From Streptomyces virus Yaboi (taxonomy: Duplodnaviria > Heunggongvirae > Uroviricota > Caudoviricetes), in IMG/VR virus record IMGVR_UViG_2974625447_000001, positions 1 to 57,807 of that record: DNA of 57,807 nucleotides. The stretch is one strand, 5' to 3'. The translations under genes were made by a program, and so were the position numbers. Under the pieces are notes generated by a model. The model was not told where the DNA came from and ran no database searches. It saw nothing but the letters and a program-made list of their open reading frames with translations. Shown piece by piece: positions 1 to 53,564 of this stretch; positions within the stretch are counted from its first letter, which is position 1; the number at the start of each line of letters is the position of its first letter.

Positions 1-228
1 ACGCAGGTAAATCAGCGGCGAAACACACGCATTTCCTTCATTTCTAAGGCCAGAAGGGGGTTCCAGCCTTCAATATGCAGCCAAGATACGCAGCCAGCCT
101 TTTAAATCCATCAATCAGGCCCTAAAACAGCCCTTCAAAACAAGGAGAAATCGGCCTGTTTCCTTCCAAAATCAATCAAAAATGCCCCAAAACCTGCGAA
201 AACTAGCCAAATCTGCAAAATTTTGGAC

Positions 229-690
229 ACTTTCGTAAAGGGCATGCCAGATAGACCTTAGAATCATAGGATGTTGGGCAGATTTTGCCTTCATTCGTAA
301 AGCAGCCTGGCTAGACAGCCTGATTATGCAGCCATGATAGTCAGCCAGAGTATTCAGACATGACAGACTGATTGTTCTCTGTGTCTTATATGTAGAATTG
401 ACCCGGTGGGTAGTAGTTAGTTGTTATATGTCTTATATAGAGCAAGGGCACCTAGACCACCGGCCCAACATCTCTCCTTGTACTATGTCTTATATCGTAA
501 AACAGAAGAAGCCTGCCAAAAAGAACTGGCAGGCTTTGTTGCATGTCTTATATAAGACAGACCGAACTAACGATCTTCAATTTGAATTCGTAAAATCGTC
601 CGGGTTTTCAGGCCCATTCGTAAAGGCCCGGAAATTCGAGCCCGGAAATTTTGACGCCTATCGTAAAGGGCGAAAAATCGGACATCAGGG
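229..690. repeat. Terminal non-coding block of short repeats
   Basis: TGTCTTATAT at 382, 429, 486, 544 (the last is part of the perfect palindrome TGTCTTATATAAGACA, 544-559); TCGTAAA at 233, 295, 495, 588, 618, 661; CCCGGAAATT at 627, 641. Confidence 0.8.
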
Positions 691-909
691 TCAAATCAAA
701 AAATAGATGTACAGTGATGCTGTTAGTTAGAGTAAGCAATGAACCGCCCCGGCTAGCGCTACGCGCCACAGGATAAAATTGAAAGGTCCCTGGGCTGCTG
801 CCGACCATCAGCTATTTAACCCCTTGCCAGAACTGACTGATAGGGGACCCAGGAACACAACCTCATGACCTCACTACAATAGTGTAACAAGGTCATCGCT
901 CTGTGTCAA

Positions 910-1113
910 TCACCACTCCAGCTCATCGACCACACAGTAGTGAGAGACGAACGGAACGACCCACCGAGTGTTGAGCAGCTTGCCCCTTTCCTCCCACAGA
1001 GTGAGAGTCTTGGTTTCGTTGTTCATCTCGATACCGTTGGTCATGATCCCTGTGAATTCCAGCTCCCTTCGGACGCCTTCTTCGAGAACGATCACAGTTA
1101 CGGTGTGAGTCAT
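910..1113 (-). CDS. Hypothetical protein, 67 aa
   Basis: ORF with own promoter (1135-1163) and GAAGGG RBS. Confidence 0.8.
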   Translation of the reverse strand: MTHTVTVIVLEEGVRRELEFTGIMTNGIEMNNETKTLTLWEERGKLLNTRWVVPFVSHYCVVDELEW

Positions 1114-1183
1114 GCGATTCCCTTCGTTGGTACTAGTCTAACAGAGTACAAGGGACATGTCTACCACCGGCCAAAATAGCCGG

Positions 1184-1201
1184 GGCGGCCCGAAGGCCGC
1201 C
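1184..1201 (-). terminator. GC-rich hairpin with C(UUCG)G-type loop; representative of the cassette hairpins
   Basis: GGCGGCC-CGAA-GGCCGCC. Similar hairpins near 1600, 2802, 3308, 5697, 6153, 6743, 7224, 7755, 8210, 8893, 9608 and 9989, each just after a stop codon. Most lack a U-tract. Confidence 0.65.
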
Positions 1202-1208
1202 CGTGGGC

Positions 1209-1523
1209 TTAGTTCCAATAGGACTCGGACTCGTAGTCCTCCATCATTTCCTCGAAAGCCTCAGCGAGCCACACAGCCCGCTCCTTACGACGGATCTCAC
1301 GGCGGAGGAGAGGACCCTTCTCACCCTCATCCGCGTAGCGGTGGGGCAGGATGCGGCTGCTGGCACTGACACCGCCGTTGGCGCTGGAGTTCTGAGAGCA
1401 GAATCCGCAGCGGCAGCTACGACGACCGGTGCCGGGAATCGGAATGCCCTTGGCACTGTTGGCAAAGGCGACGGAGCGACGGTGGCCCACGATGCGGTCC
1501 TGAGTGAGCGCGTAGTAACCCAT
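1209..1523 (-). CDS. Hypothetical protein, ~104 aa, CxCxxC motif and basic C-terminus
   Basis: Start moved to ATG 1523 because of GGAAGGA RBS and the promoter at 1550-1578. Confidence 0.75.
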   Translation of the reverse strand: MGYYALTQDRIVGHRRSVAFANSAKGIPIPGTGRRSCRCGFCSQNSSANGGVSASSRILPHRYADEGEKGPLLRREIRRKERAVWLAEAFEEMMEDYESESYWN

Positions 1524-1626
1524 ACAATTCCTTCCCTCGAACTGATACGAGTCTAGCAGAGTAGTCGGCCATTGTCTACCCGAACCGGGGCGGCCAAAAG
1601 CCCCCGCCGAAGCGGGGGCCATTGAC

Positions 1627-2628
1627 TCAGGAAGCCAGAGCGAAGCCCAGGACAGCCCTACGGATCTTGTTCTTCTCGGAGTTGATCACCGGGTCGAAAC
1701 CGGAAGCAGCGGCGAAGAGGTTGTCCACCTCGCCCTTACGCGGCATGCGGTACCAGTCCAGACGCTCCGTCAGGGCGTTCAGCGCACCCGCCATGGTGCC
1801 CTGGAGAGACTGAGTGGTCTTGGGGCCGTCGCCCGTGTCGGTGAAGATCCCCATCAGCAGGTCACGCTTGTTGTCCCACTTGACCTGAGAACCCTTGACG
1901 TTCTCCTTGGGACGGTCGCCGTAGACCTCACGGATGATCTCATCGAACTGGTTCTTCGTGCACTCCGTGCGGAACAGCTCGTTCATCTCACGCTCGAACT
2001 CATCGGCGTAGGCGAACGTGATGCTCAGAGCCTCACGCGCAGCGGCCATGCGGCCCTCGATAGTCTGCGTGTGGCGCATCTTGAACGTCTGCTTCACACC
2101 GTTACGGAGTGCGAAGTTCAGCGTGTTCTGACACACGACACGGACCGGGGTGACGCTCGCCTGCACCGCAAGAGAGCCGTCGTGGGAGGTGTTGACCAGA
2201 AGATACATGTTGGTCACGTCGTCGTCACCGACCAGCACCTCACGGCCGATACGCAGAGATCCGAAGACCTGCGTACCATCCTTGATAGAACCGGCAGTTT
2301 CCCACGTGCCACCGCCCGCGAGGATGCCGTCACCGAAGGCGAACAGCTCCTCATTCTGGACGACCTTGTATCGCTCCGCGACGATACCGAGAGAGTCCGC
2401 CTCGCCGTCGAACGGGTTGGTACGGATCACCTCGAAAGCGTTCTTCTTTGTGCGCCCCTTGCGCTCCAGCAGTTCCAGCCGGACGTTCCAGTTGGAAAGG
2501 TGTGCCAGGTCCAGCATCTCTCGCGTGGACAGCTCACCCTCGAAAACAGTGCCAAGGTTGTGCCAGGCAGGCTCAGCGCGGGTGGCGAAGGCGACCTGAC
2601 CCCTGGAACCAATCTCAAGACCGTGCAT
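1627..2628 (-). CDS. DUF932-family phage/plasmid-like protein
   Basis: Motifs PAWHNLG, RYKVVQN, AGSIKDG, YLLVNTSHDGS, VRVVCQNT are typical of DUF932. AGGAG RBS before ATG 2628. Confidence 0.85.
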   Translation of the reverse strand: MHGLEIGSRGQVAFATRAEPAWHNLGTVFEGELSTREMLDLAHLSNWNVRLELLERKGRTKKNAFEVIRTNPFDGEADSLGIVAERYKVVQNEELFAFGDGILAGGGTWETAGSIKDGTQVFGSLRIGREVLVGDDDVTNMYLLVNTSHDGSLAVQASVTPVRVVCQNTLNFALRNGVKQTFKMRHTQTIEGRMAAAREALSITFAYADEFEREMNELFRTECTKNQFDEIIREVYGDRPKENVKGSQVKWDNKRDLLMGIFTDTGDGPKTTQSLQGTMAGALNALTERLDWYRMPRKGEVDNLFAAASGFDPVINSEKNKIRRAVLGFALAS

Positions 2629-2826
2629 CTTTGCTCCTAGTGTAGTCGTTTCTTCTAGCTTACTGCCATCATGACTGTCTGTCAAAGTAGTCACGCTGGC
2701 CTGCCGAACGGGGTTTCCCCCTGTTCATGTTCTTAGTCTAACAGGGTCGGCCTGATCTGTCGAAGAGATTTGGGACATGATCATTTCGCCGGGGCGGCTT
2801 TGCGGCCCCGGAGGGCCGCTAGCCAA

Positions 2827-3219
2827 TTAGGGAATCATGCCGAGCGGTTCCCACGTTTCGATAATCTCGTCATCCGTGACAGCCGCTACAGCCTGGTACT
2901 CACCCTCTCGCACGTTCGAAGAGGTGTCATAGACAACGACACGGTAACCCGCATCGTCCAAGTCGTAGCCGAAGTTTTCGAACCAGCGTGCGACTTGATC
3001 CGGGGAGGTGAGAACACAGTATTCGTTCTCCTCGATTCCCCCGAAAATGTCGGTCCACGGAGTGGGGTGCGTCTCGTCCACGTGCTCACGGCACAGACGA
3101 TTGGAAACGGCCTTTACCTTCTCGTCGGAAGAATTCCAGCCCTCACGGTAAGGGCCAGACCAGCTTCCCGAACTGTTGCCCACGTGCTCAGGCGGCAGGG
3201 CAACACGGTAAACGATCAC
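2827..3219 (-). CDS. Conserved-type phage hypothetical protein (YRV...GPY...HPxP motifs)
   Basis: GTG start with GGAGG RBS; own promoter at 3251-3280. Confidence 0.75.
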   Translation of the reverse strand: MIVYRVALPPEHVGNSSGSWSGPYREGWNSSDEKVKAVSNRLCREHVDETHPTPWTDIFGGIEENEYCVLTSPDQVARWFENFGYDLDDAGYRVVVYDTSSNVREGEYQAVAAVTDDEIIETWEPLGMIP

Positions 3220-3328
3220 GATTCCTCCAATGTCTCCCAACGTTTAGACCAGTCTAACGGATGGTCAGCAGTCTTGGCAAGGCGCGTTAGCTAGATCTTT
3301 TAGCCGGGGCGGCCCGAAGGCCGCTTTG

Positions 3329-3673
3329 TCAATCTCCCATGCGAATGATGATCTGCTCAATGACGAACCGGCACACAGCAGCTCGATTGTATTCGTCGTC
3401 ATTGCGCGTAGTGCCGTTAGCCTCTTTTGCAGCCATTGCGTTAATGATAGCTACGGCCAGGTCAAAGAGAGGCTTTTGCAATGACTCATGTTCACTGCAC
3501 ATCAGGTAAGCAAGGGTGTGGGCGTCGAATGTACGCTTATTGAGAACGGAAAGGATTTTGTCGGCATCCTTTTCCGCCGGGCTTCGACGTGTAGACGTTA
3601 CTCGCGCGCCCTGATATACATCGGGCGCGATGACTGTTGTTTCTGCCAGTCGAAAGATGTCGCCATTAGCCAT
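3329..3673 (-). CDS. Hypothetical protein, 114 aa
   Basis: GGAGG RBS; ends at a cassette hairpin. Confidence 0.8.
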   Translation of the reverse strand: MANGDIFRLAETTVIAPDVYQGARVTSTRRSPAEKDADKILSVLNKRTFDAHTLAYLMCSEHESLQKPLFDLAVAIINAMAAKEANGTTRNDDEYNRAAVCRFVIEQIIIRMGD

Positions 3674-3714
3674 TACGCCTCCAATAAAGCGGCCCCCTTT
3701 CGGGGGCCGCAGTC

Positions 3715-3876
3715 CTACTTGGGTTCGAAGTCTTGCGTATTCCCATATCCGTCAGATACGCTGACAGACATTCCGAGTACCGTTGCCAGGAAGGGGCCGA
3801 GAGCTTGGATCATGCTCCATGCCTGATCTTCCTGGTCATCTCCGTTGGGCTCGATTTCGAGCATGACGTTGGCCAT
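3715..3876 (-). CDS. Small hypothetical protein, 53 aa (MANVMLEIEPNGDDQEDQAWSMIQALG...)
   Basis: Translated by hand. It fills the gap between the Lsr2-like stop and the hairpin at 3689-3710. Confidence 0.6.
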   Translation of the reverse strand: MANVMLEIEPNGDDQEDQAWSMIQALGPFLATVLGMSVSVSDGYGNTQDFEPK

Positions 3877-3885
3877 ACTTCTACC

Positions 3886-4398
3886 TTACTTGCTCTTGAC
3901 TTCAACGTCAAGGCCGAGTACGACCGGGGAGCCGCAGCCGCAGTGAGACAGAGAATAGCCGCACTTGCAGACTTCCCGCTCACTGAACTTCCAGACCTTA
4001 CCCTTACGGTCCACCGCGAGGTATTCGACATTCTTCCCACGGGTCGGCTCCGCGTGCGGACGAACATCCTTGCCGGTCGGTGCCTTCACACCGGAAACGG
4101 CCTCCGCCTTCACATCCGGATTGGCCTTTGCGTACGCCTCCAGAATCTCACTGGAAATACGGCCACGGGAGTTGACCTCGATACCGTTGGCCTTGGCCCA
4201 GGCACGGACCTTCTTTGCGTCATAGGCACCGGCCTTGACGGTGGCGGGCTTGTTGGTACGGACCACGCCCGTGTCAGCGAAGACGGTACCCTTGGCCTCA
4301 GCAGCCTCGATAGCCGCGTAAGCGGCCTTAGACATGCGACCCCTCTTGCCCATCTCGGCAAGGCCCAGGCTGGCGGCGTACTCACGACGAGTCTGCAT
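3886..4398 (-). CDS. lsr2: Lsr2-like DNA-binding protein with two RGR domains and a Cys-rich tail
   Basis: VRAWAKANGIEVNSRGRISSEILEAY matches the Lsr2 C-terminal domain. A second similar unit (REYAASLGL..KRGRMS) lies at the N-terminus. Confidence 0.85.
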   Translation of the reverse strand: MQTRREYAASLGLAEMGKRGRMSKAAYAAIEAAEAKGTVFADTGVVRTNKPATVKAGAYDAKKVRAWAKANGIEVNSRGRISSEILEAYAKANPDVKAEAVSGVKAPTGKDVRPHAEPTRGKNVEYLAVDRKGKVWKFSEREVCKCGYSLSHCGCGSPVVLGLDVEVKSK

Positions 4399-4508
4399 TT
4401 TGGTCCCTTCGTTGTCCTTCGTTGTACCTTAAGCATAACAGAGGTGTCGGAGGGCGGCAACATAAAATTTGTCCGATTTGTCTCGCCGCCCCGGCCCGAA
4501 GGCCCGCA

Positions 4509-5234
4509 CTATTTCTTAGTGCGAGAGAACCGGATATCTGCCTTACCGAAAATGCAAAGGCCACACGTTACGCACGCGCCACCCTTTTCGGTAATGAGAG
4601 GAATCCTCTTTGCATTCTCCGGGCACATTCCACCGGGAACACCCGTGAGAGTTTCGAGAATTTCCTTGCCTTCGTTGAAGGTCTCGCCAAGATAGGCAAG
4701 CTTCACACCCGGATTGTCAGCCGCGCAAAGAAGCCCGGCGTTAAGGTTTTCCTTGTCTACGCTGAGATAGACAGACAGGTTAGGAATGGACGTGATGAAT
4801 CCTACATACTCGAATGAACGAGTGTAGATCCAGAAATGCACGTCGGGGAATGCGAGGCAGGTTGTCTCAATTGCCTCCGCATATGCAGCCGAGAAAATGT
4901 CACCATCGGCGTGCCAACGGAAAAGCCTGGGGACGTTGTGCTTCTCGCACTCAGTCACAAACTCACCGATCATCTCACCCAAAAGTGAGATCATCTCGGC
5001 AAGGGAGGCATCCTTGAGCAATTCCCAATTGTGCATGGCGACTGCCAGGAATGCCGGATACTGCTTTTCGATCCTACCCGCATAGCAGATAGTCTCACAA
5101 ACTCCCGTAGCACCGGGGCAGGAAAACGCCTTGCCAGACGGCAGAGAAAAGGCGTTTTTGATCAGCGATTGCTTCCCGGCCTTGTTGGCTCGGACGGTGG
5201 TCTTCCGGTCGTTCGTTCGCTTGAGTGCGTTCAT
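4509..5234 (-). CDS. GP88-like (radical-SAM-related) Fe-S protein
   Basis: FSLPSG..CPGATGVCETICYA, FRWHADGD, WIYTRS and a C-terminal CPE..CxxCxxC, as in the mycobacteriophage GP88 family. Confidence 0.7.
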   Translation of the reverse strand: MNALKRTNDRKTTVRANKAGKQSLIKNAFSLPSGKAFSCPGATGVCETICYAGRIEKQYPAFLAVAMHNWELLKDASLAEMISLLGEMIGEFVTECEKHNVPRLFRWHADGDIFSAAYAEAIETTCLAFPDVHFWIYTRSFEYVGFITSIPNLSVYLSVDKENLNAGLLCAADNPGVKLAYLGETFNEGKEILETLTGVPGGMCPENAKRIPLITEKGGACVTCGLCIFGKADIRFSRTKK

Positions 5235-5303
5235 GGATCGATTCTATCAGTGAGTGCCAGGTCTGTGCAACATGTTTCAACTAAGATCAAAAAGCCGGGG
5301 CGG

Positions 5304-5615
5304 TTACCCGCGCGCTCCGGGCCAACCGAGTTCTTCCCATTGCCAGTCAAAGCAATCATCGGACTCTTCGAAGATCGGAATCTCTTCGATCCCCAAAAGA
5401 TAAGCAATCATCAGACGGTGATGACCGTTGTAGAAGGTATTGGTTTGGAAATCATACACGCATCCAGCCTGAATGCCGTGCTGTGCGACAGAAGAGACAA
5501 ACTCCCAATCAATATGGTTGAGCTTGTCATAGAACATTTCCCACTTGGTTTCTCCGTCAAGCTGGTCGTTGAAGATCGCGTTCTTCATCAGCCATTCGAC
5601 GTTCGCCATGATCAT
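5304..5615 (-). CDS. ParB/Srx N-terminal-like small protein (paralog 1)
   Basis: NGHHRLMIAYLLG (the GHHR motif of the ParB/Srx fold); AGGAGG RBS. Confidence 0.7.
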   Translation of the reverse strand: MIMANVEWLMKNAIFNDQLDGETKWEMFYDKLNHIDWEFVSSVAQHGIQAGCVYDFQTNTFYNGHHRLMIAYLLGIEEIPIFEESDDCFDWQWEELGWPGARG

Positions 5616-5660
5616 GGTGTCCTCCTGTCGCTAATGACAGCTTACATCATCATGCTCCGA

Positions 5661-5730
5661 GATGCAACACTTTTTCAAAAGAGCCGGGGCGGCCAAACGG
5701 CCCCCGAAGGGGCCGTTGGCTAGATGATCA
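5661..5730. repeat. 70-bp exact direct repeat, copy 1 (copy 2 at 8857-8926)
   Basis: Base-by-base comparison. It contains a stop codon, hairpin, box and -35 element. Confidence 0.9.
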
Positions 5731-5892
5731 CTTGGGGGCGACCTCGAAGTCGTCCAGGCCGAGCGCGATGGTCTCGAACTCGTTGGCCATGTTTTCGGTC
5801 ATCTCGGCGGTGATGTTGCGGACCAGACGGACACGCGCGGTGGCGGTCATGGGGGTCTCAGCGATGACCTTGGCGATGGCGAGAGCCTTCAT
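5728..5892 (-). CDS. Small hypothetical protein, 54 aa (MKALAIAKVIAETPMTATARVRL...)
   Basis: Translated by hand; own promoter (5922-5950), GAAAGG RBS, GC3-rich codons. Confidence 0.75.
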   Translation of the reverse strand: MKALAIAKVIAETPMTATARVRLVRNITAEMTENMANEFETIALGLDDFEVAPK

Positions 5893-5947
5893 TTTAGAGC
5901 CTTTCGTCGTGGTGTGTTCTTAGTCTAGCGTATCGAGCTTGGCTTGT

Positions 5948-6046
5948 CTACTCGCAGTCCACCAGAATTTCCATGTCGTCCAGGTGCGCGTCGGCACCGT
6001 AGGTGTCGTCCTGCTCGTCGGTGATCTTCGCAAGGGTGACGGCCAT
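5948..6046 (-). CDS. Acidic 32-aa peptide (MAVTLAKITDEQDDTYGADAHLDDMEILVDCE)
   Basis: Own promoter (6087-6116) and GAGGTGG RBS. The stop codon overlaps the next -35. Confidence 0.65.
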   Translation of the reverse strand: MAVTLAKITDEQDDTYGADAHLDDMEILVDCE

Positions 6047-6130
6047 GGGAACCACCTCTCCGGGATTTCTCCCTTTCGATGTCTCTAGTCTAACAGACGC
6101 AAGGGATAGGGGGCAACACGAATCTTTCAA

Positions 6131-6170
6131 GATCTTTTGACCGGGGCGGTTCGCGCCCCGAAGGGCGCTA
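6131..6170. repeat. 40-bp exact direct repeat, copy 1 (copy 2 at 9586-9625)
   Basis: GATCTTTTGACCGGGGCGGTTCGCGCCCCGAAGGGCGCTA at both sites. Confidence 0.9.
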
Positions 6171-6174
6171 GCCG

Positions 6175-6636
6175 TTAGCCGTTGCAGACCGGGCAGTCCG
6201 AGTCACAGCCGTAGCTGTAGCTGTCTTCGTACTCGTAGCTCTCCGCGCGTTCCAGGTCGCTGATGTGGTCCTCGATCAGCTTCTTCGCTTCCGCGATGCT
6301 GAGGAACGGGAACTTGTCCCGCAGCGCCTTGATGCAGACGATCTTGAAGGTTCGTCCGTTGTCGGCCACGATGCCGGGCACGGCCTGCCGCACCTCGTTG
6401 GCGGCGTAGTCCTCGATGCTGCGCAGACGGATCATCTCCTCACGGGAGACGGTCAGACCCTCGTTCCGGGCCTGAATTCGACCCTCCGTCACGCCGACCT
6501 TGTGGCCGTTCGCGTAGCTGGTGTTGATCACCGGCTGGAACTCGTTGACGATTCGGTCCGCCAGCTCGTAGGCGTCGGCCAGGCTCATGTCCAGCTCGGC
6601 GTCGTTGAACAGGTTCACGATCTTCGCGGCGTCCAT
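6175..6636 (-). CDS. Protein with ribosomal L7/L12 C-terminal-like motif (paralog 1)
   Basis: KIVCIKALRDKFPFLSIAEAKKLIE versus the bL12 consensus KIxxIKxxRxxxxLGLKEAKxxVE. Confidence 0.6.
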   Translation of the reverse strand: MDAAKIVNLFNDAELDMSLADAYELADRIVNEFQPVINTSYANGHKVGVTEGRIQARNEGLTVSREEMIRLRSIEDYAANEVRQAVPGIVADNGRTFKIVCIKALRDKFPFLSIAEAKKLIEDHISDLERAESYEYEDSYSYGCDSDCPVCNG

Positions 6637-6767
6637 GAATTCCTCTCTTAGAGGGTGTTTCCCTCTTTGATGTCTCTAGTCTAGCAAGGAAGGGGGAGCG
6701 AATGCAACATGATTCTTGAAGATCTTTTCGCCGGGGCGGCTAGCGGGGCCGAAGCCCCGCCGCCTAT

Positions 6768-7124
6768 CTACCGACGCCCCATGGGAAGGCCCTTCCGAGC
6801 CGCTTCCCTTTCCAGCTCCCAACCGTTGTTTGTCTCTTCCGGGTGGATGTACTCCACTTCGGTGATCCCGAGCAGGTACGCGACGAGCAGCCGGTGATGA
6901 CCATTGGTCACCATGTTCGTGCTGGGGTTGTAGACGATGGGAGTCTGAATGCCGTCACGCTCGATGGACTCGATGAACTGCCGGGGAAGCTCATCGAACT
7001 TCTCCAGCATGCACCGTTCCTTGTCATCCATCCAACGGGAGCCGAAGCGCCCACGTTCCCGAGAGTTTTCCGCGTCACCGAAGATCGCATCGTGCCAAAG
7101 CTTTTCGACGTTGACCTTGGGCAT
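6768..7124 (-). CDS. ParB/Srx N-terminal-like small protein (paralog 2)
   Basis: SIERDGIQTPIV...NGHHRLLVAYLLG is a ParBc-like signature. Confidence 0.75.
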   Translation of the reverse strand: MPKVNVEKLWHDAIFGDAENSRERGRFGSRWMDDKERCMLEKFDELPRQFIESIERDGIQTPIVYNPSTNMVTNGHHRLLVAYLLGITEVEYIHPEETNNGWELEREAARKGLPMGRR

Positions 7125-7249
7125 CTTCACTCCTGAGTCTCGCCCTGTTGGTAATTCGAGTATAGCGAAGCATGTGATGAGGAGTCAACTCAACTCATCA
7201 AGATCTTTTGACCGGGGCGGCTAGGCCGCCCGAAGGCGGCCCGGCGCGA

Positions 7250-7393
7250 TTAGATCCAGTTCCAGCCGATGTGGAGCAGTGCTCCGATGACCATGATCAG
7301 AAAGGCGGTGATGCCGATGTTGACCAGAAAGAGCAGAACAGCAGTCGGGCCGTTAACGTTGGAGGCGGTGATCGGACCCTTGATGTTGTACAT
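7250..7393 (-). CDS. Small membrane protein, 47 aa
   Basis: Translated by hand (MYNIKGPITASNVNGPTAVLLFLVNIGITAFLIMVIGALLHIGWNWI); AGGAG RBS. Confidence 0.7.
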   Translation of the reverse strand: MYNIKGPITASNVNGPTAVLLFLVNIGITAFLIMVIGALLHIGWNWI

Positions 7394-7507
7394 GACGCTC
7401 CTAGAATATCGATCCGACGATTGTTGCTGCTGTCCACAATCCTAGCAGACCTAGGCAGACAAGGAAAGGTATGAGGACCAGCAATCCTACACACCCGATG
7501 ATCTTTG

Positions 7508-7666
7508 TCAGATCCACTCAAGCGGGTCGTAGTCGAAGATGTCTCGGTGATCACGGAAGCGATTGGCACGCTCCCTGCGGATCTTGCCGAGCTTCTTCAC
7601 TTCCTTGATCTTCTGGTTCTTGTTGCGGTACTTCTCGACGCGCTGTGCACGGAGATCGCTTCGCAT
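7508..7666 (-). CDS. Small basic protein, 52 aa
   Basis: Translated by hand (MRSDLRAQRVEKYRNKNQKIKEVKKLGKIRRERANRF...); own promoter at 7691-7719. Confidence 0.7.
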   Translation of the reverse strand: MRSDLRAQRVEKYRNKNQKIKEVKKLGKIRRERANRFRDHRDIFDYDPLEWI

Positions 7667-7776
7667 CTTCGTTCCCTTCGTTCTGACTCAAGTATATAGG
7701 GAGAGAGGGCCAGATGCAACACGTCTAAGGAAGATCTTTTCGCCGGGGCGGCTAGCGCCCCGAAGGGCGCAGCCGA

Positions 7777-8112
7777 TCAGTTGTCCATGATCGTGTGATA
7801 GAAGTTCTGGTAGGAACGCGCGCCGTCGATGGCGTCCTGCAAGCTGTCGTAGCCCATGAAGTCGTCCAGGGTCTCGATCTTGAAGAAGCCGTCCACGTTG
7901 CGCGTCGCGTAGCGGAGGCTGTAGGACTTGTACTTCGGGTCGTCCATGTACTCGGACGTGATGAAGATTACGCCACGCTGGCCGATGGGGAAGAGGTCGT
8001 TCTCATAGAGTTCGGTGTTGAAGAACCGCATGGACGAGCTGGAGAACCAGTGGAGCGCCTGCGAAGTGGTCTCGCGGGAAGCCTTCTTGATCTGGTCCAT
8101 CGTGGAAAACAT
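7777..8112 (-). CDS. Conserved-type phage hypothetical protein (HWFSxxSMRFF motif)
   Basis: ATG 8112 with GAGAGG RBS, downstream of promoter 8141-8170. Confidence 0.8.
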   Translation of the reverse strand: MFSTMDQIKKASRETTSQALHWFSSSSMRFFNTELYENDLFPIGQRGVIFITSEYMDDPKYKSYSLRYATRNVDGFFKIETLDDFMGYDSLQDAIDGARSYQNFYHTIMDN

Positions 8113-8232
8113 TTGCGTTCCTCTCGCTCGGTGTAAGTAGAGTCTAACACAGTCCAACGACAGAGTACAACACCAATTTCTCAAGATCTTTTGACCGCCC
8201 CGGCCAAATGGCCCCCGAAGGGGCCAGATGAC

Positions 8233-8499
8233 TTACAGCTTCGGCTTCTTGCCGATTCCCATGCTCTTGCCGAAGTCGTAGGACTTGCCCTTGACCTCAT
8301 ATCCGTTGACCGCGCGGGTGACTCGGAACGGCGCAGCGTGGTGAAGAGCGGACAGCTTCTCAGCGGTACCGGCCGCCGTCACGTAGACTCGACCCTCACG
8401 CTCGCTGACCCGGTAGTCCAGTTCGACGCCATAGACCGTAGCCATCGTGATGACGACACCGGCACGCTTGGTGGAAACCTCACCGAAGAGAACAGCCAT
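8233..8499 (-). CDS. Hypothetical protein, 88 aa
   Basis: GAAAGG RBS; its promoter is embedded in the 3' end of the upstream gene. Confidence 0.8.
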   Translation of the reverse strand: MAVLFGEVSTKRAGVVITMATVYGVELDYRVSEREGRVYVTAAGTAEKLSALHHAAPFRVTRAVNGYEVKGKSYDFGKSMGIGKKPKL

Positions 8500-8532
8500 T
8501 TTATTGCCTTTCGTCGTTGTGACTAGAGTCTA

Positions 8533-8811
8533 TCAGATGCGGTGAACGTTGTCACGCAGTTCGGTGAACGTGTGCGGACTGGCCACCAGCTCGGCATTGC
8601 GGTAAAACCCGTGATCCACAAGGACCGTGATCGAATTGTACACGACACTCTGAACAGTGCCAGTGTAGGCGATCTTGCCGTTGATCTCAAGGCCCTCGTT
8701 CAAGTAGAGCTGAGCCCACGAATTGGTGACCAAAACCCTGTCACCCTTACGGATCTTTCCGTAGTTGCTTTGGAGATGCTTCCTGATCCTGTAGCTCAGC
8801 GGCATCGACAT
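8533..8811 (-). CDS. Hypothetical protein, possibly SH3/KOW-like
   Basis: IRKGDRVLV motif; start placed downstream of promoter 8835-8863. Confidence 0.7.
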   Translation of the reverse strand: MSMPLSYRIRKHLQSNYGKIRKGDRVLVTNSWAQLYLNEGLEINGKIAYTGTVQSVVYNSITVLVDHGFYRNAELVASPHTFTELRDNVHRI

Positions 8812-8923
8812 GATCTCTCCCTTTCGTTGAGACGAGTCTACATGACACCGGGTCAGGATGCAACACTTTTTCAAAAGAGCCGGGGCGGCCAAACGGCCCC
8901 CGAAGGGGCCGTTGGCTAGATGA

Positions 8924-9496
8924 TCAGCACTGGCAGCCGCATCCCTTGCAGCAGCCGCAGGCGTAGTATTCGCCGCATCGACCGATGGAGTCAATGGCCA
9001 CGTCGTTGGTCGTCAGCTTCTCACGCAGCGCGTTGAGAGCGGAGTCCGTGGCCAACTCCGGTTCCGGCTTCGGGGAGTTCTTCTCGGCCTCCTCGATCTT
9101 GGCCCAGTCGAGCTGGTCGGTCGTCCCGACCGGCTTGATCATGTCCATGATCGCCTTGGCCTCGATGAGACCCAGCGGGCGGAACTTGTCCCGGAGGATC
9201 TTGATGCAGGTGATCTTGCGGGTCAGGTCACGCTCGGTGAAGTTCATGACGGCCCAGGCCGTGGCCTCCACAACCTTCGGGTCGAAAGCCGCACGGATGG
9301 AGTTCTTGCCCGCCTCGACACCAGCGTTGTACTGCTCCTGGCCGTAGACGTACTTCGCGTCCTCGGCCTTGTACTTCTCGTCCTCCATCTTGCGACGGAA
9401 GCCACGCTCGATGTCCCCCGCGAACTGAAGGGCGGTCTGGATCTTGGCCTCGGGGAAGTAGTTGCCGACCTGCTCGACGATCTTGATCTTCTCCAT
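8924..9496 (-). CDS. Protein with ribosomal L7/L12 C-terminal-like motif and Cys-rich tail (paralog 2)
   Basis: KITCIKILRDKFRPLGLIEAKAIMD; tail CGEYYACGCCKGCGCQC. Confidence 0.65.
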   Translation of the reverse strand: MEKIKIVEQVGNYFPEAKIQTALQFAGDIERGFRRKMEDEKYKAEDAKYVYGQEQYNAGVEAGKNSIRAAFDPKVVEATAWAVMNFTERDLTRKITCIKILRDKFRPLGLIEAKAIMDMIKPVGTTDQLDWAKIEEAEKNSPKPEPELATDSALNALREKLTTNDVAIDSIGRCGEYYACGCCKGCGCQC

Positions 9497-9629
9497 GACA
9501 AACCCTTCTCTCTAGGGGCCTCTTGCCCCTTTCGATGTACTAAGCTTAGCAGAGTCTAGCGCGCCATGTCCAACTGCTCTTTCATGATCTTTTGACCGGG
9601 GCGGTTCGCGCCCCGAAGGGCGCTAACCT

Positions 9630-9929
9630 TTACTCCCAAGGCGCGTAGTCGCTCTCACGCTCGGCAGGCTTACGCTCGATACGGTCCCGGTACTGGCCGA
9701 TGCTGTTGACCGACCAAATCGGCTTGAGACCCTTGTTGCTGTAACGCTTCTTGGTCAGACGCTTGAGGACGGTTTCCGCCTCACGACGGGAACGAACCTT
9801 GATCGACACGCAGGGCTCACGATAGTTGTACCACCAGCCACCCTCTTCGGACCCGCCGTATGCGCGGTCCTCAAGGTAGATGTTGGCGTAGAACGGACGG
9901 GGCTTGCGAACCTTCGGCGTCTTCTTCAT
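9630..9929 (-). CDS. Hypothetical protein with DRAYGGxEEGGWWY motif
   Basis: Leaderless-type ATG 7 nt after the TAGACT -10. Confidence 0.75.
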   Translation of the reverse strand: MKKTPKVRKPRPFYANIYLEDRAYGGSEEGGWWYNYREPCVSIKVRSRREAETVLKRLTKKRYSNKGLKPIWSVNSIGQYRDRIERKPAERESDYAPWE

Positions 9930-10006
9930 AGGGATGAGTCTAACAGAGTATCGGGCCGGTGGCAACAGATTCTCAATTTAGCCGGGGCGGCCCCGAAGGG
10001 CCTCCA

Positions 10007-10162
10007 TTAGAGAGACTTGGTTTCGATCTTCCGACACTTAAGACACTTGCGAGCCTGCATGAGCTGGGTCCATTCGACAGGACGACCCTTGATCCATCCG
10101 AGCAGAGGGCTATCCATGTGAGCAGTGAACACATTCCATGGCGTCCACTTGTGAAAACACAT
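10007..10162 (-). CDS. Small Cys/His-containing protein, 51 aa
   Basis: TAATG coupling to the upstream gene; CxHxW...CxxC. Confidence 0.65.
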   Translation of the reverse strand: MCFHKWTPWNVFTAHMDSPLLGWIKGRPVEWTQLMQARKCLKCRKIETKSL

Positions 10163-10410
10163 TACTTGTCCCTCCAAAGGAACTGACCCTGACACGCACA
10201 GTCGTTCGGAACCCTGTCTACCTTCTTGAAAGCACGATTGATCGTTGTGCGCGGGTAGACAGCTCGCAGACACTCACGGGGGTTGTGATGCCCCACCTTG
10301 ATCCACTCGTCTACGACTTCTACATAGAGGAAAGTCTGTTCGTGTCCACGCTCCACAGGATCGGAAACGTAGACATCACCTTCGGAGATCCAGTTGATTC
10401 CCAGGTTCAT
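10162..10410 (-). CDS. Hypothetical protein, 82 aa
   Basis: Leaderless ATG 6 nt after TAGACT. Confidence 0.7.
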   Translation of the reverse strand: MNLGINWISEGDVYVSDPVERGHEQTFLYVEVVDEWIKVGHHNPRECLRAVYPRTTINRAFKKVDRVPNDCACQGQFLWRDK

Positions 10411-10608
10411 GTCTGTAGTCTAGCAGTCCGATTCCTTAGTTGGCAACACGTTGCGCCGATTTTTTAGTCTCTAGATGTCTGCACAGATTTTTAGTCATCT
10501 AGCCGGGGCGGCTAACTTTTTAGTCAAAAATTCACCCCTGCATTTCGAAGGTTTTTCGTGCATATACCTAAGAAACACAGGGGTGAAAATCTCTGCGAAT
10601 TTATTTGC

Positions 10609-10839
10609 TCAGGTCCACAGCTCCTCTACCTTGGACCAAAAGCGGTGGATTCGCGGGTCGTTGTTGTCATTGGCGTAGAAGGGATCATAGATCGTGCCCG
10701 TGATCACCCATGCCGCATGCGGATTGAATTCGGCAAGGCGGTTGAAGCAGAATTGCCCGTATCGCTGTCCCTTGTTGTCTCTCTGGAATTCAGCGATAGT
10801 GTCGAGAATGAATTGATTCAAGGTGAGGTCAGCGGGCAT
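10609..10839 (-). CDS. Hypothetical protein, 76 aa (RYGQxxFN motif)
   Basis: Coupled to the upstream stop. Confidence 0.7.
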   Translation of the reverse strand: MPADLTLNQFILDTIAEFQRDNKGQRYGQFCFNRLAEFNPHAAWVITGTIYDPFYANDNNDPRIHRFWSKVEELWT

Positions 10840-10840
10840 T

Positions 10841-11017
10841 TCACTTCCAATCGGTGGGAAGTCCACGGCCGAGGGTGATCTTCTTGTCCAGCTTCTCGAA
10901 TTCCTCCATTCCGGCAATACAACCGGCAATGGTTACTCCGTTGGGAGTCTTCTTGAATGCCTCCCACTTTGCGCGAATGTCGTCCAATATGAGCTGCATT
11001 TCCCTCTCAGCAGACAT
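10841..11017 (-). CDS. Hypothetical protein, 58 aa
   Basis: GAAGGA RBS; operon packing. Confidence 0.65.
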   Translation of the reverse strand: MSAEREMQLILDDIRAKWEAFKKTPNGVTIAGCIAGMEEFEKLDKKITLGRGLPTDWK

Positions 11018-11219
11018 ACTTTTCGTCCTTCCCACTACCACAAAGGCAGTATTTGGAATGTTTTGCTTCTACCGGGCGAAATCCTCTTTCGTTGTACTTT
11101 TTCAGCAGATTTTCGAGATTTCCCGAAGAAATTACGCCCGTTTCAGAAAAGAGACCGTTCTTTTCCAGCGTGAGGGTAAGCGAATGCGTCAGAACGATTT
11201 TCTGCTTTTTCTTGAACAT
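11007..11219 (-). CDS. Hypothetical protein, 70 aa
   Basis: AGGGAAG RBS; overlaps the next gene. Confidence 0.6.
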   Translation of the reverse strand: MFKKKQKIVLTHSLTLTLEKNGLFSETGVISSGNLENLLKKYNERGFRPVEAKHSKYCLCGSGKDEKYVC

Positions 11220-11273
11220 TGCTTCCCTTTCTACCCCTAATGGGGGATACCCTTTCGGATATCCCCCAATTGG

Positions 11274-11417
11274 TTACGCCAGTTCGGAAACGTGAGGGTA
11301 GGCGTCCCAGTCGATCTCTACGGTACGCGCGTCCTCGTGGACGGTGGAAACGGGCAGCTCAGAAGCGGAAACCAGACCCTCGGATACCGCACGCTCCAGC
11401 AGCTCAGCAGTGGTCAA
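11274..11417 (-). CDS. Small acidic protein, 47 aa
   Basis: Translated by hand from a TTG start with GGAAGGG RBS, behind promoter 11450-11478. Confidence 0.6.
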   Translation of the reverse strand: MTTAELLERAVSEGLVSASELPVSTVHEDARTVEIDWDAYPHVSELA

Positions 11418-11479
11418 GATGATCAGTCCCTTCCTTGTGGTGTGTTACCAGTCTAAGGGATAGATCTACGCTGGTCAAC

Positions 11480-11700
11480 CTGAAAAGTCCCCGGAAATTT
11501 TTCGTACCTTTCGTACACGCGCGGGTGGAATGTCCCGGAAAATCCTAAATGCCCTCGTAAACCCGAATGCCCCATATGCCAGGGATGCCCGATATGGGTA
11601 GGGTTTGATACGGTATGTCCGATTTGCCTGGTCTGTACCCAATGTCCGATTTGCCCCATATGTCCGGCCGCCCCGGTCAAAATCCTTTACCAAGTCGTTA
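11480..11700. repeat. Non-coding low-complexity repeat block
   Basis: ATGTCCGATTT at 11615 and 11642; CCCGGAAAWT at 11490 and 11534; ATGCCC variants; one box at 11668. Confidence 0.7.
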
Positions 11701-11783
11701 CCTAGAATCTCGAAAATCGGGGGTTTCAGCGTCCCTACTGGGGTAGTCTGTAGGTACAACGACGAACACAAGGGAGACAGACA

Positions 11784-12245
11784 ATGATCACCACCACCGC
11801 CCCGGTCACCGCTCACGACAGCAGCACCCACCAGTGCCGCGCGGATGACCGCACGGCCGGTAGCGCGTACCGCCGTCAGCTCCTCGCTACGGTGCTTATG
11901 CTGGCTAGCCTTACGGGACACTCGGACGGTGAAACCTACGCGGTGTGTGTGGGTTGTGGGCAGGATGCCTACGTTGGCGGTAACCCCCGCAGCATGGACA
12001 CGCTCAACCTGGGGCACTGTGAGGCTGACGCAACGGGTGGCACGTACTGCGCTGCGAACATGCTTCCCCTTTGCAGGCAGTGCAACGAAGACATGGGTAA
12101 GGAAAGCCTTACCGATGTGCTGGTTCCCCTGTATGACAACCGTCACATGTGGAATGGGAAGCTGGTCAAGGACAACGGCAAGGTTAAGCAGGAGCCGCAG
12201 GCTAACCGTGGACGTGCCAACTGGACGCGCCCCACGGGGGCGTGA
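11784..12245 (+). CDS. HNH endonuclease-like protein
   Basis: CVGCG...LGH...GG...NMLPLCRQCN is the zinc-binding HNH pattern. Confidence 0.75.
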   Translation: MITTTAPVTAHDSSTHQCRADDRTAGSAYRRQLLATVLMLASLTGHSDGETYAVCVGCGQDAYVGGNPRSMDTLNLGHCEADATGGTYCAANMLPLCRQCNEDMGKESLTDVLVPLYDNRHMWNGKLVKDNGKVKQEPQANRGRANWTRPTGA

Positions 12246-12496
12246 GCGGCCTAGGGGGACCGCCCCGGTAGGGAAACCTACCGGGGCACTTTCATGCCCT
12301 TAGACGGGCGCACAGAGCTTTTGAACACGATTTTCAAATGGCCGCCCCGGTCCGTGGAACCTTCCCCGGAGCAAAAGTCAAGCCATATGGGCGCACTAAT
12401 CGAATTGTTACAAAGGTATGCGAAGCATGTATCATACATCACAAAAAATTACTAACATTTCGAATCTGAAAATAGATGATCTTGTAGCCGCCCCGG

Positions 12497-12724
12497 TCAA
12501 TCACGCCAAAGCTCGAATCCCACAACGTGCATGCATGGCTCAAATCGGGCGTGATAGTCGCACTGGCAATTAAAACAATCGCCTGTGACCATAATTGTGC
12601 TCGGTTCTTTTCCGCAATGCAGACAGTTGGGAAAACCTAGACCGTGATACTCCAATGATTGATAATCTGAACAGAATGCGCAGTAGGCGTTAAAGCCTAT
12701 AACACTATCAGTCTTGTGAGTCAT
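12497..12724 (-). CDS. Small Cys-rich (zinc-binding) protein
   Basis: Three CxxC pairs. Confidence 0.7.
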   Translation of the reverse strand: MTHKTDSVIGFNAYCAFCSDYQSLEYHGLGFPNCLHCGKEPSTIMVTGDCFNCQCDYHARFEPCMHVVGFELWRD

Positions 12725-15182: not shown

Positions 15183-15584
15183 TTATCGTGCTGACTCTGT
15201 AAACATCCAGAGCCACTTATCGACGCCGCGCTTAATTTCGATTAGTACATCTTGCGTAGCGAGGTCGTCTGTGATATTAAAGATAGCACCTGAGAGGACC
15301 ATTGTCAAACTCTCAAGAGAGGACTTTATCCCGCTGACGACTTGTAGATATGAGACTGATTCCCCAGAGAATTCATAGGAAACCTTTGGCGCGAGGTACA
15401 TCTCTCTCGCTCTTGCTCTTTCAGCTACAGTATCGGCATATTCAGTGATATCTTCATGAAACTCGTCTAGCTTCTCGTGAAGGTAAAAGAATTCCTTACC
15501 TCGGAGATTCCAGTGGTTCTCCTTGGTCGCCAAGGAGAGTATTAGTAGCCATTCCAGAATCTCTTCCAGCTTCTGTTCTAGCAC
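15183..15584 (-). CDS. dps: Dps/ferritin-like protein
   Basis: KENHWNLRGKEFFYLHEKLDE...DTVAER is the Dps ferroxidase motif; AAGGAGG RBS. Confidence 0.85.
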   Translation of the reverse strand: MLEQKLEEILEWLLILSLATKENHWNLRGKEFFYLHEKLDEFHEDITEYADTVAERARAREMYLAPKVSYEFSGESVSYLQVVSGIKSSLESLTMVLSGAIFNITDDLATQDVLIEIKRGVDKWLWMFTESAR

Positions 15585-21472: not shown

Positions 21473-22387
21473 GTGATTAAAATAGCAACACCTATGACAG
21501 CATCACAGATTAAGGCTCAGCTAAAGAAGTGGGGAATCCCATTCAAGGAATACAAGAACTGGGCTACTCACAACAGAAACCACGTGGGAAAGTGGGGTCC
21601 AGTAAATGGATTCATGGTACACCACACTGGTTCTGATTCTAAGGACCAGCGTGAACTTCTATACGCTGGTATTTCTGGTCTACCAGGCCCTCTTTGCCAC
21701 TTTGGTCTTGCTCAGGATGGAACTGTTCACCTAGTTGGATGGGGACGAGCAAATCACGCTGGAGCAGGAGATCCTGACGTTCTCAATGCAGTAATCAATG
21801 AGAATTATGGAGCAAATCCTCCAGCAGACAATCAGTCTTCTGTTGACGGAAATTCCCGATTCTACGGAGTGGAGATCTGGTATTCAGGCTCCCATAAGAT
21901 GAGCGATAAGCAGTATGCTACCCTTCGTAAGCTAGCCGCTGCAATTTGTGATTTCCACAAGTGGAGTGAAAAGTCTGTAATTGGACATGGTGAATGGGGA
22001 AGTCCAGGAAAGTGGGACCCAGGCATTTCATCTGGAAAGATGATGGATATGGCAAAGGTCCGTGCCGATATTAAGGCTACTCTTTCTGGAAAGACAACAA
22101 CACCTACAACTCCAGCAAAGCCAGCTACTCCAGCGCCAGCAAAGCCATCAACAGCAACTAGCCACACTGTTGTAAAGGGTGACACCCTTTACTCTATTGG
22201 AAAGAAGTACAACGTTACTGTTGCCAACTTGAAGAAGTGGAACAATCTAAAGTCTGACGAGCTAACTATTGGAAAGAAGCTGACCCTAAAGGCTCCAGCT
22301 ACTACGCCAACGCAGCCAACCGTTCAGCAGCAGATTGCAGATATTCTCAAGAGGCTTGCAGCAGTTGAAGCAAAGCTAAAGGGATGA
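21473..22387 (+). CDS. Endolysin: N-acetylmuramoyl-L-alanine amidase + LysM
   Basis: MVHHT...CH...GRANHAG...GVE...GHGEW..KWDP; LysM HTVVKGDTLYSIGKKY. Confidence 0.92.
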   Translation: MIKIATPMTASQIKAQLKKWGIPFKEYKNWATHNRNHVGKWGPVNGFMVHHTGSDSKDQRELLYAGISGLPGPLCHFGLAQDGTVHLVGWGRANHAGAGDPDVLNAVINENYGANPPADNQSSVDGNSRFYGVEIWYSGSHKMSDKQYATLRKLAAAICDFHKWSEKSVIGHGEWGSPGKWDPGISSGKMMDMAKVRADIKATLSGKTTTPTTPAKPATPAPAKPSTATSHTVVKGDTLYSIGKKYNVTVANLKKWNNLKSDELTIGKKLTLKAPATTPTQPTVQQQIADILKRLAAVEAKLKG

Positions 22388-53489: not shown

Positions 53490-53564
53490 GAGTGAAGGAT
53501 GCTATACTCTACATAGCACTTCCCCTGCGTGGAATGCGCAGGGGATTTTATTTTGGAGGATACA

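Follow-up and report, generated by a model that had tools for sequence, protein, structure and literature searches.

What reads a short interrupted palindrome that recurs between the small genes at the left end of the genome of Streptomyces virus Yaboi, and to what effect? The window analysed here is the whole stretch of 57,807 nucleotides (positions 1 to 57,807 of IMG/VR record IMGVR_UViG_2974625447_000001), and the element in question is an 11-bp box, RCCG-(GGG/CCC)-CGGY, which an earlier reading of the same letters (hereinafter referred to as the original prediction) had described as a private mark of the early region. The boxes were found to crowd into the direct terminal repeat (DTR) of the phage, mostly at gene junctions, and dyads with different arms occupied the same slot in related phages. 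With about even confidence, we propose that the box is bound as duplex DNA by a phage-encoded protein of dyad symmetry, which would act on all early cassettes together.

Distribution of the box

The source genome comprised 131,250 bp and was of the cluster-BE type (Boydwoodruffvirinae), with the window as its left end. Its nearest relatives in the collection searched were StarPlatinum, Karimac, and Wofford (~80-86% identity). The DTR was delimited as follows.

1..12432, no strand: left copy of the DTR, an exact 12,432-bp repeat whose right copy starts at genome position 118819

The GC content of the DTR was 52-58%, compared with 45-48% in the rest of the window. All genes in the DTR were oriented leftward except for one HNH endonuclease gene, which matched the annotated relatives.

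The exact scan of the window identified 22 boxes, all within 743-12497. The dense array of the original prediction was therefore real, although its count of 21 was one short, and the density far exceeded the 0.11 ± 0.31 boxes expected from dinucleotide-preserving shuffles of the window. In the whole genome, 43 boxes were present, 21 in each DTR copy and one at 12487, which is located 55 bp past the inner edge of the left DTR; the remaining ~106 kb of unique sequence contained none. The absence of boxes after 12.5 kb, as originally noted, is thus an absence outside the terminal repeat, with the right DTR copy carrying its own 21.

The three inner arm pairs were Watson-Crick symmetric in all 22 window copies and the outer R/Y pair was A..C in four of them. 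The immediate flanks were variable, and conservation was sharply limited to the 9-bp CCG-SSS-CGG. The core was exclusively GGG or CCC (22/22), in agreement with the fixed 3-bp core described previously, and its C-rich strand was the local sense strand in 18 of the 22 copies.

Box variants in related phages

A GC-rich dyad of ~13 bp was found in the same junction slot of all cluster-BE relatives examined, with at least six lineage-specific arm variants. Hence, the box is private in its arm sequence but not as a family. The forms occupying the junction slot were as follows.

Karimacvirus, including the window: N-R-CCG-(GGG/CCC)-CGG-Y-N
Tomas and Naboo: GACCG-(GCC/GGC)-CGGTC
Bmoc and Riptide: GGCCG-CCC-CGGCC
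Samisti12, LilMartin, Mildred21, and four metagenomic contigs: GTCSG-NNN-CSGAC
Daubenski: Samisti type together with hybrid half-sites such as GGCCG...CGGAC
Coruscant: GGCGCC-S-GGCGCC
Mandalore: TGCGCC-S-GGCGCA

StarPlatinum, Wofford, and Karimac harbored 18-19 boxes each at orthologous junctions, and whole-genome scans of StarPlatinum and Wofford placed their boxes exclusively in the DTRs. Among the types for which whole genomes were scanned (Karimac, Bmoc, Samisti, Daubenski, and Coruscant), each was restricted to its own DTR and was missing from the other scanned genomes. Scanning of the whole genome and of the relatives thus extended the predicted confinement, with each lineage carrying its own arms. 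In BK-cluster relatives such as Annadreamy, the long cassette-bearing repeat was missing and the box was not enriched.

The lineage-specific arms were also found at three orthologous sites that are not cassette junctions, namely the terminal box (~0.75 kb from the genome end), the box preceding the HNH gene, and the box at the DTR edge, although the switch of arms was less clean at the DTR edge than at the other two. At orthologous junctions among Karimacviruses, the arms were 95.6% identical, the core 86.7% (lowered by flips), and the flanks 79-83%. Some orthologous boxes were separated by a core flip alone, without intermediates (StarPlatinum 5060 vs. Wofford 5417). The isolation host failed to predict the box type: Streptomyces griseus ATCC 10137 is the isolation host of StarPlatinum, Wofford, and Karimac and also of the differently boxed Samisti12 and Daubenski, and S. 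mirabilis is that of Riptide, with Bmoc-type boxes, and of MindFlayer, whose HNH protein is Karimac-type and whose boxes were unread.

Duplex site or hairpin

In Samisti12, only 3 of the 15 copies had complementary bases at box positions 6 and 12 (seven had GG and five CC), and folding of the most frequent form would leave a loop of a single base. Together with the A..C outer pairs of the window, these exceptions indicated that stem pairing is not kept across copies and lineages. Independence of the half-sites, hybrid sites, and both core orientations in one context are predicted by a two-fold-symmetric reader of duplex DNA, and not by a hairpin. The box is thus better explained as a duplex site for a symmetric protein encoded by the phage, because the arms are lineage-specific even at non-cassette positions, are independent of the host, and include the unfoldable Samisti variant. 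The symmetric, dimeric protein site of the original prediction is accordingly the reading that best suits the invariant dyad of the arms, the lineage variants, and the Daubenski hybrids.

Anatomy of the junctions

On the coding (-) strand, the junctions followed the order of stop codon, GC hairpin, box, A/T tract, -35, extended -10, ribosome-binding site, and gene, and 15 junctions showed hairpin, box, -35, and extended -10 in one short unit. A complete module is exemplified below.

6100..6175, - strand: GCGCCC-UUCG-GGGCGC hairpin, GA, box ACCGCCCCGGT, CAAAAGATCTTGA, -35 TTGCCC, 18 nt, and extended -10 TGTTAGACT

The hairpin consisted of a GC stem with, in most cases, a c(UUCG)g tetraloop, and no U-tract followed. 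It was separated from the box by 0-5 nt throughout, or overlapped it, the right arm of the hairpin doubling as the left arm of the box in four modules. Exact stretches including hairpin and promoter were common to junctions 5683 and 8879 and to junctions 6140 and 9595. Canonical terminators (hairpin plus T-run) were not enriched (13 vs. 11.1 expected), so the junction hairpins, which did not qualify as intrinsic terminators, are read as running into the GC box without a U-tract. No Rfam family matched anywhere in 1-13 kb of the window.

The -35 element took the forms TTGCAT, TTGCCA, and TAGACA, with a spacer of 17-18 nt and an extended -10 of TGnTAGACT, which we take to agree with the Streptomyces HrdB consensus. 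An independent scan detected 23 sigma-70-type promoters against 4.8 ± 2.3 expected. The gap from box to -35 was 22-24 nt in 10 copies, 15 nt in four, and 5 nt in one, which recovered the three classes of clustered gaps reported originally, frequently with AAAAGATCTT as the intervening A/T tract. The box centre was accordingly located at about -64/-65 relative to the inferred transcription start in ten modules, at -56 in four, and at -46 in one.

Strict coupling between box and promoter was not upheld, because the position of the box was tied more closely to the hairpin and junction than to the -35. HrdB-class promoters outside the DTR lacked the box (e.g., 18337, 57381, 77565, and 99473), and two box-less promoters within the DTR also lacked the hairpin; therefore, the box tracks the junction and the DTR, and not the promoter class.

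At ~9 junctions (e.g., 6118-6139, 6708-6729, and 7720-7741), the A/T tract was the palindrome AAGATCTT, which includes GATC, a Dam-type site, and AGATCT; a DNA methyltransferase is annotated in the relatives. Roles of the box as a restriction-site decoy or in connection with Dam/GATC were considered, and no supporting evidence was obtained. In the region 9929-9981, the gene following the box at 9981 has its ATG only ~7 nt past the -10 (TAGACTcatccctATG) and is probably transcribed as a leaderless mRNA.

Candidate reader

The proteins encoded in the DTR were surveyed for a potential reader of the box. Searches of ~25 DTR proteins against Pfam and PHROGs flagged no regulator, and the only classical DNA-binding domain was that of the Lsr2-like protein. 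The gene that drew attention was the following.

11784..12245, + strand: HNH endonuclease of 153 aa (phrog_7426), the sole rightward gene of the DTR and candidate reader

This gene was syntenic at the inner end of every BE-type DTR or left end examined, and had boxes 5' of, within, and 3' of itself. The Zn-binding and H-N-N catalytic residues C55, C58, H78, N92, C97, C100, and N101 were invariant in 17 homologues. Matches to the HNH protein comprised 83 records, all from Streptomyces phages, with two each (one per DTR copy) in nearly all of those listed, and none of the BK-type relatives listed in the genome comparison was among the 60 HNH matches shown.

A natural experiment was provided by Bmoc, which is a Samistivirus by genome yet carries CCG-arm boxes; identities were compared across all of its open reading frames (ORFs). 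On average, these were nearer to Samisti-type than to Karimac-type genomes by 11.4 ± 12.2 identity points. The HNH gene was reversed (+8.8 toward Karimac-type, rank 7 of 171) and was the only such DTR gene in two genome-wide screens. In the HNH tree, Bmoc and Riptide grouped with the Karimac-type phages (98/96 support), and the grouping kept 85/87 after removal of the N-terminal 30 residues, which overlap a box. In contrast, the DUF932 and Lsr2 trees placed Bmoc and Riptide inside the Samisti group (100/100), and the GP88 tree did likewise for Bmoc. These data suggest that HNH is the only gene whose phylogeny follows the box type, the basis being a single independent contrast that the trees support strongly. 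Tomas and Naboo were considered as a second contrast and rejected, because the trees identified them as true sisters of Karimacvirus. Taken together, the DTR HNH protein is the best candidate for the reader, an assignment that we make tentatively and at less than even confidence. The AlphaFold2 monomer model of the protein was poor (mean pLDDT of 55), and comparison with solved structures gave a marginal match to the HNH domain only (E = 0.9).

The partners named in the original prediction were not retained. The supposed MerR-like gene corresponded to an ORF (53529-54074, +) without a match to MerR or any other Pfam family, and neither MerR nor helix-turn-helix matches were obtained in Pfam for its neighbours. 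The ParB-like proteins possess the N-terminal domain only, have no DNA-binding domain, and did not covary with the box type.

5304-5615 and 6768-7124, - strand: two paralogous small ParB-N-like proteins with an NGHHRL motif (phrog_4635)

Other candidates were also rejected. The product annotated as a DNA binding protein at 15183-15584 (-) was ferritin/Dps-like (Pfam PF00210, E = 7e-10), and evidence from StarPlatinum, Wofford, or Daubenski spoke against the discordant genes at 84843-85160, 118051-118329, and 106864-107088. The endolysin was discordant in the screen but is no DNA-binding candidate. The LysM endolysin of Bmoc (L008 20713-21744; window 21473-22387) was 76-83% identical to Karimac-type and 59-64% to Samisti-type proteins, which perhaps reflects a separate, host-linked mosaic exchange.

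The Lsr2-like protein is encoded at 3886-4398 (-) in the DTR. Lsr2 reads AT-rich DNA, and the higher GC content of the DTR might let the immediate-early region escape silencing of AT-rich DNA by host Lsr2. Cys-rich C-terminal tails were observed in four DTR proteins (3886-4398, 6175-6636, 8924-9496, and 11007-11219, all -), reading CKCGYSLSHCGCG, CDSDCPVCNG, CGCCKGCGCQC, and CLCGSGKDEKYVC; these may be small zinc modules.

Boxes and the ends of homology blocks

The DTR of the window was compared with those of StarPlatinum, Wofford, Karimac, and Tomas by means of BLAST blocks. Of 45 block ends, 58% were located within 60 bp of a box centre, compared with 19.5% of random positions (P<0.0005), and 10 were within 7 bp. 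A conserved 11-mer tends to anchor the ends of BLAST blocks, so this signal is partly built in, and we regard the clustering as supportive but not decisive. The original prediction had offered a recombination core for cassette exchange as an alternative; this idea also gains support from the association with breakpoints, with part of the signal built in through the anchoring.

Proposed function and alternative explanations

In the reading that we prefer, the box would be the Karimacvirus version of a set of ~13-bp dyad sites that mark almost every cassette junction of the DTR in cluster BE, the DTR being viewed as the early, host-takeover region. A two-fold-symmetric phage protein would bind with one subunit on each RCCG arm across the G3/C3 centre, just 3' of the UUCG hairpin and ~23 bp 5' of the next HrdB-type -35, and would thereby control all early cassettes at once. 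Since the promoters are already close to the host consensus, our guess at the effect is shut-off, repression, or timing in preference to activation. The reader may be the HNH-family protein from the inner end of the repeat, which may also regulate itself, since boxes flank and enter the 5' end of its gene. Further, the hairpin-box-promoter junctions would serve as crossover points for the exchange of cassettes.

Several observations weigh against this explanation. The box centre at about -65 is an activator-like rather than a repressor-like position, and the catalytic residues retained in HNH fit a nuclease better than a pure regulator; both leave some weight with models of activation and of nicking or cleavage. 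Among modules and genera, the gap from box to -35 varied widely (5-29 nt), compared with the constant 0-5 nt between box and hairpin, and a standard promoter is missing downstream of 6 of the 22 copies. Nor is the strand bias of the core expected from a dimer of perfect symmetry. In addition, the DTR proteins showed no recognisable sequence-specific DNA-binding domain in Pfam or PHROGs, the link to HNH comes from a single evolutionary contrast (the Bmoc/Riptide lineage) and was partly found post hoc, and gene conversion among junctions could account for part of the uniformity of the boxes within the genome.

The same protein appears with another role if the boxes are nick or cleavage sites at which HNH starts DTR-DTR and co-infection recombination and cassette exchange, with any effect on transcription being secondary. 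We consider this unlikely but of real weight: HNH covaries with the box type, its Zn-binding and catalytic residues are invariant, the sites occur only in the region that is obliged to recombine between genome ends, the ends of homology blocks gather at boxes (10/45 within 7 bp), and the strand bias of the core suits a strand-specific nick. Interrupted GC palindromes of 11-13 bp also resemble the sites of dimeric nucleases, and the G...C copies of the box fit the BglI site GCCN5GGC. T5, which has a similar layout, shows specific nicks (PMC10644984), and its terminal repeat includes an HNH gene of the pre-early class (bioRxiv 10.64898/2026.04.02.716235). In contrast, ~21 early cuts in its own early region would be risky for the phage, a host genome of ~72% GC would contain hundreds of sites by our own estimate from composition, the breakpoint signal is partly built in through the conserved 11-mer, and a link to the promoter is suggested by the regular 22-24 nt that separate box and -35 in modules of the Karimac and Coruscant types. 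A fusion of the two ideas, in which a site-specific HNH enzyme encoded in the DTR would bind, nick, or cut the junction dyads, both timing the early genes and triggering recombination at the junctions, is in our judgement also unlikely. A box with no reader at all is distinctly less probable. It would then be the most conserved part of a junction resembling the PeSLs of T4-type phages, which are units of hairpin plus early promoter and operate in this manner (PMC2839356, PMC4122927); it would be homogenised by gene conversion and serve as a homology patch for shuffling, as the exact stretches shared between junctions, hairpin and promoter included (5683/8879 and 6140/9595), and the enrichment of breakpoints at junctions would suggest. 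Against it, conservation stops sharply at the 9-bp CCG-SSS-CGG, the dyad is retained in all six variants, the lineage arms recur at three non-cassette orthologous sites without shared flanks, and a patch of 11 bp is very short for homologous recombination.

The constant neighbourhood of the hairpin could mean that the box itself acts as a nucleic-acid structure, whether a mini-hairpin with a 4-bp stem and 3-nt loop, an extension of the terminator stem, or an N4-like single-stranded DNA hairpin promoter. A c(UUCG)g hairpin lacking a U-tract always directly precedes the box or overlaps with it, the left arm of the box is the right arm of the hairpin in four modules, and the C-rich strand of the core is usually the sense strand. 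We nevertheless regard such a structure as very unlikely, since Samisti boxes are unfoldable (6/12 paired in 3/15; 1-nt loop), the outer pair is A..C in 4/22 window copies, GGG and CCC cores are both tolerated in the same context, and Rfam gave no match. As is well established, a GC-rich hybrid directly after the hairpin opposes intrinsic termination. A strong HrdB-type promoter is already part of each module, and an N4-like virion RNA polymerase is not listed in the StarPlatinum annotation over 1-96 kb. A host factor of Streptomyces (for instance, a nucleoid protein or a global regulator) that is recruited to or excluded from the early region could instead recognise the box. Immediate-early promoters must fire before any phage protein exists, and one tolerant reader is conceivable for the C-S-G-N3-C-S-G common to the Karimac, Tomas, Bmoc, and Samisti types. 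The Coruscant and Mandalore types break this pattern, however, phages from the same host strain differ in arm type, the arms are switched in concert within lineages, and the literature search gave no Streptomyces operator of the box sequence; this explanation appears highly improbable. A phage-encoded symmetric reader of duplex DNA hence remains our preferred reading of the box.

Individual box sites

The 22 boxes of the window were located as follows.

1179..10512, - strand: 16 leftward-junction boxes of 11 bp each, hairpin-adjacent, with + strand starts at 1179, 1584, 2788, 3303, 4485, 5294, 5683, 6140, 6730, 7211, 7742, 8194, 8879, 9595, 9981, and 10502
743..753, - strand: terminal box, beyond the last leftward gene and with no promoter after it
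11667..11677, + strand: box 5' of the rightward HNH gene, orthologous across lineages with lineage-specific arms
11796..11806, + strand: box within the 5' coding region of HNH (codons 5-8, T-A-P-V), kept in StarPlatinum, Wofford, and Bmoc
12259..12351, + strand: two boxes 3' of the HNH gene, starting at 12259 and 12341
12487..12497, - strand: box past the DTR edge, 3 nt beyond the stop codon with which the leftward ThyX operon ends

The claim that a box stands upstream of nearly every early cassette applies to the 16 junction boxes, but not to the box at 743 or the last five (11667-12497), which lack the standard context. The claim that all copies are intergenic or abut a stop codon was contradicted by the copy at 11796, which is inside the HNH reading frame, and by that at 12259, which overlaps the HNH terminator hairpin and forms the left arm of this GAAA-loop hairpin. 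At 10502, the inferred promoter is more distant, with the box centre at about -97.

The position of the terminal box was kept in 12 of the 15 left ends of relatives searched, each with its own arm type. In 11 of these 12 it was ~0.73-0.80 kb from the genome end; one was a metagenomic fragment without an end, and Coruscant has a box at 827. Counterparts of the box at 12487 were present in Wofford, Samisti12, and Daubenski.

Other repeated motifs were observed in the vicinity of boxes. The inner edge of the DTR (12432; region 12400-12470) falls within the palindrome ATGTAT|CATACAT. The adjacent AATGTTAGTAAT(T)nGTGATGTATGATAC is probably part of the signal for cutting or duplication of the genome end, because it is conserved across genera. 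A second motif, (C)AAATCGGACAT (ATGTCCGATTTG on the + strand), was present at 4460-4480, 11610-11666, and 675-690; it adjoins some boxes, occupies a block 5' of the HNH gene, includes the Samisti-type half-site CGGACA, and is conserved across genera. Several copies of GACTAAAAA(T) surround the box at 10502 (10440-10540), following a long-range stem TTCACCCCTG...CAGGGGTGAA and then a T-run, an arrangement also found in StarPlatinum, Wofford, Bmoc, Samisti12, and metagenomic relatives.

Comparison with known systems

The BE terminal repeats of 10-12 kb have been described only as carrying 20-25 genes of unknown function and an lsr2-like gene (PMC5764925). Our literature search retrieved no published account of the box motif or of junction elements in BE phages; the BE genome announcements and the Coruscant paper do not mention promoters, motifs, or junction elements, and the papers that matched the motif strings were unrelated to the box by title and abstract.

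The closest architectural parallel is with the PeSLs, in which hairpin and early promoter units likewise surround small genes of mostly unknown function in a plastic early region, and the insertions, deletions, and replacements that distinguish related phages have their breakpoints at these units (PMC2839356, PMC4122927). The BE junctions differ in adding an invariant dyad box, with lineage-dependent arms, between hairpin and promoter. Their array is situated wholly within a 12-kb terminal repeat of an actinobacterial siphovirus with HrdB-type promoters, and no reader has been proposed for PeSLs. Host phylum and promoter consensus differ, and the comparison is by architecture alone.

The stoperators of cluster-A mycobacteriophages are asymmetric sites of 13-14 bp whose orientation follows transcription, and are distributed genome-wide in temperate phages with an immunity repressor. 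The conserved inverted repeats (CIRs) of phiC31, itself a Streptomyces phage, occupy many intergenic positions of its early region. In both, as proposed for the box, a short, lineage-specific, intergenic site is present ~20-30 times and one phage protein governs many units; like the CIRs, the box is a multi-copy inverted repeat, mostly intergenic, in the early region of a Streptomyces phage. Unlike stoperators, the box has dyad-symmetric arms with only the 3-bp core asymmetric, and its copies are confined to the DTR (plus 12487) and tied to hairpins. Moreover, Yaboi is lytic, and profile searches revealed no repressor-like domain among the DTR proteins or candidates, in contrast to stoperator and CIR systems. 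The analogy with stoperators drawn in the original prediction is thus a loose one, weakened by their asymmetry, their genome-wide distribution, and their occurrence in temperate phages.

I-TevI, like other intron endonucleases of T4, is a phage endonuclease that doubles as an operator-binding transcriptional autorepressor (PMC2988022). At its own promoter it occupies a version of its target that resembles an operator and is cleaved inefficiently, and the HNH gene similarly has boxes at its own 5' end. I-TevI differs in that it acts as a monomer, belongs to the GIY-YIG family, and has a single operator and a single homing site, whereas the candidate here is an HNH protein with ~21 candidate dyad sites per repeat. 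The Bacillus phage SPO1 and the coliphage T5 have been named as comparators for the terminal repeats of BE phages (PMC5764925), and share a repeat of 10-13 kb crowded with small early genes (host-takeover or pre-early). T5 also has hegG, an HNH gene, and conserved blocks of repeats and palindromes near the inner end of its repeat; neither of the two T5 papers searched describes a dyad box repeated at each cassette (bioRxiv 10.1101/866236, 10.64898/2026.04.02.716235). Further, the synteny of the BE HNH gene in all lineages contrasts with hegG, an insertion that is not conserved.

Significance

The BE junctions combine known themes, namely PeSL-like junctions, multi-copy operators, and early genes in a terminal repeat. 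What is new is a lineage-diversifying, DTR-confined family of dyads and its link to a resident HNH gene. The BE phages are a large group, with 83 sequenced genomes harboring HNH in the collection searched and further members in metagenomes, and the regulatory grammar of their repeat can now be defined as gene, UUCG hairpin, lineage-specific dyad box, and HrdB-type promoter. The box offers a handle for finding the protein behind early expression or recombination, and for studying both the diversification of operator and reader specificity and the shuffling of host-takeover cassettes. Streptomyces engineering could also make use of the junctions, whether or not the box is kept, as compact and insulated units of expression. 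If a DTR-encoded HNH enzyme does bind, nick, or cut these sites, the BE phages would represent a case of endonuclease-driven, integron-like cassette exchange and terminal-repeat recombination in a lytic phage, in which the specificities of enzyme and site co-diversify.

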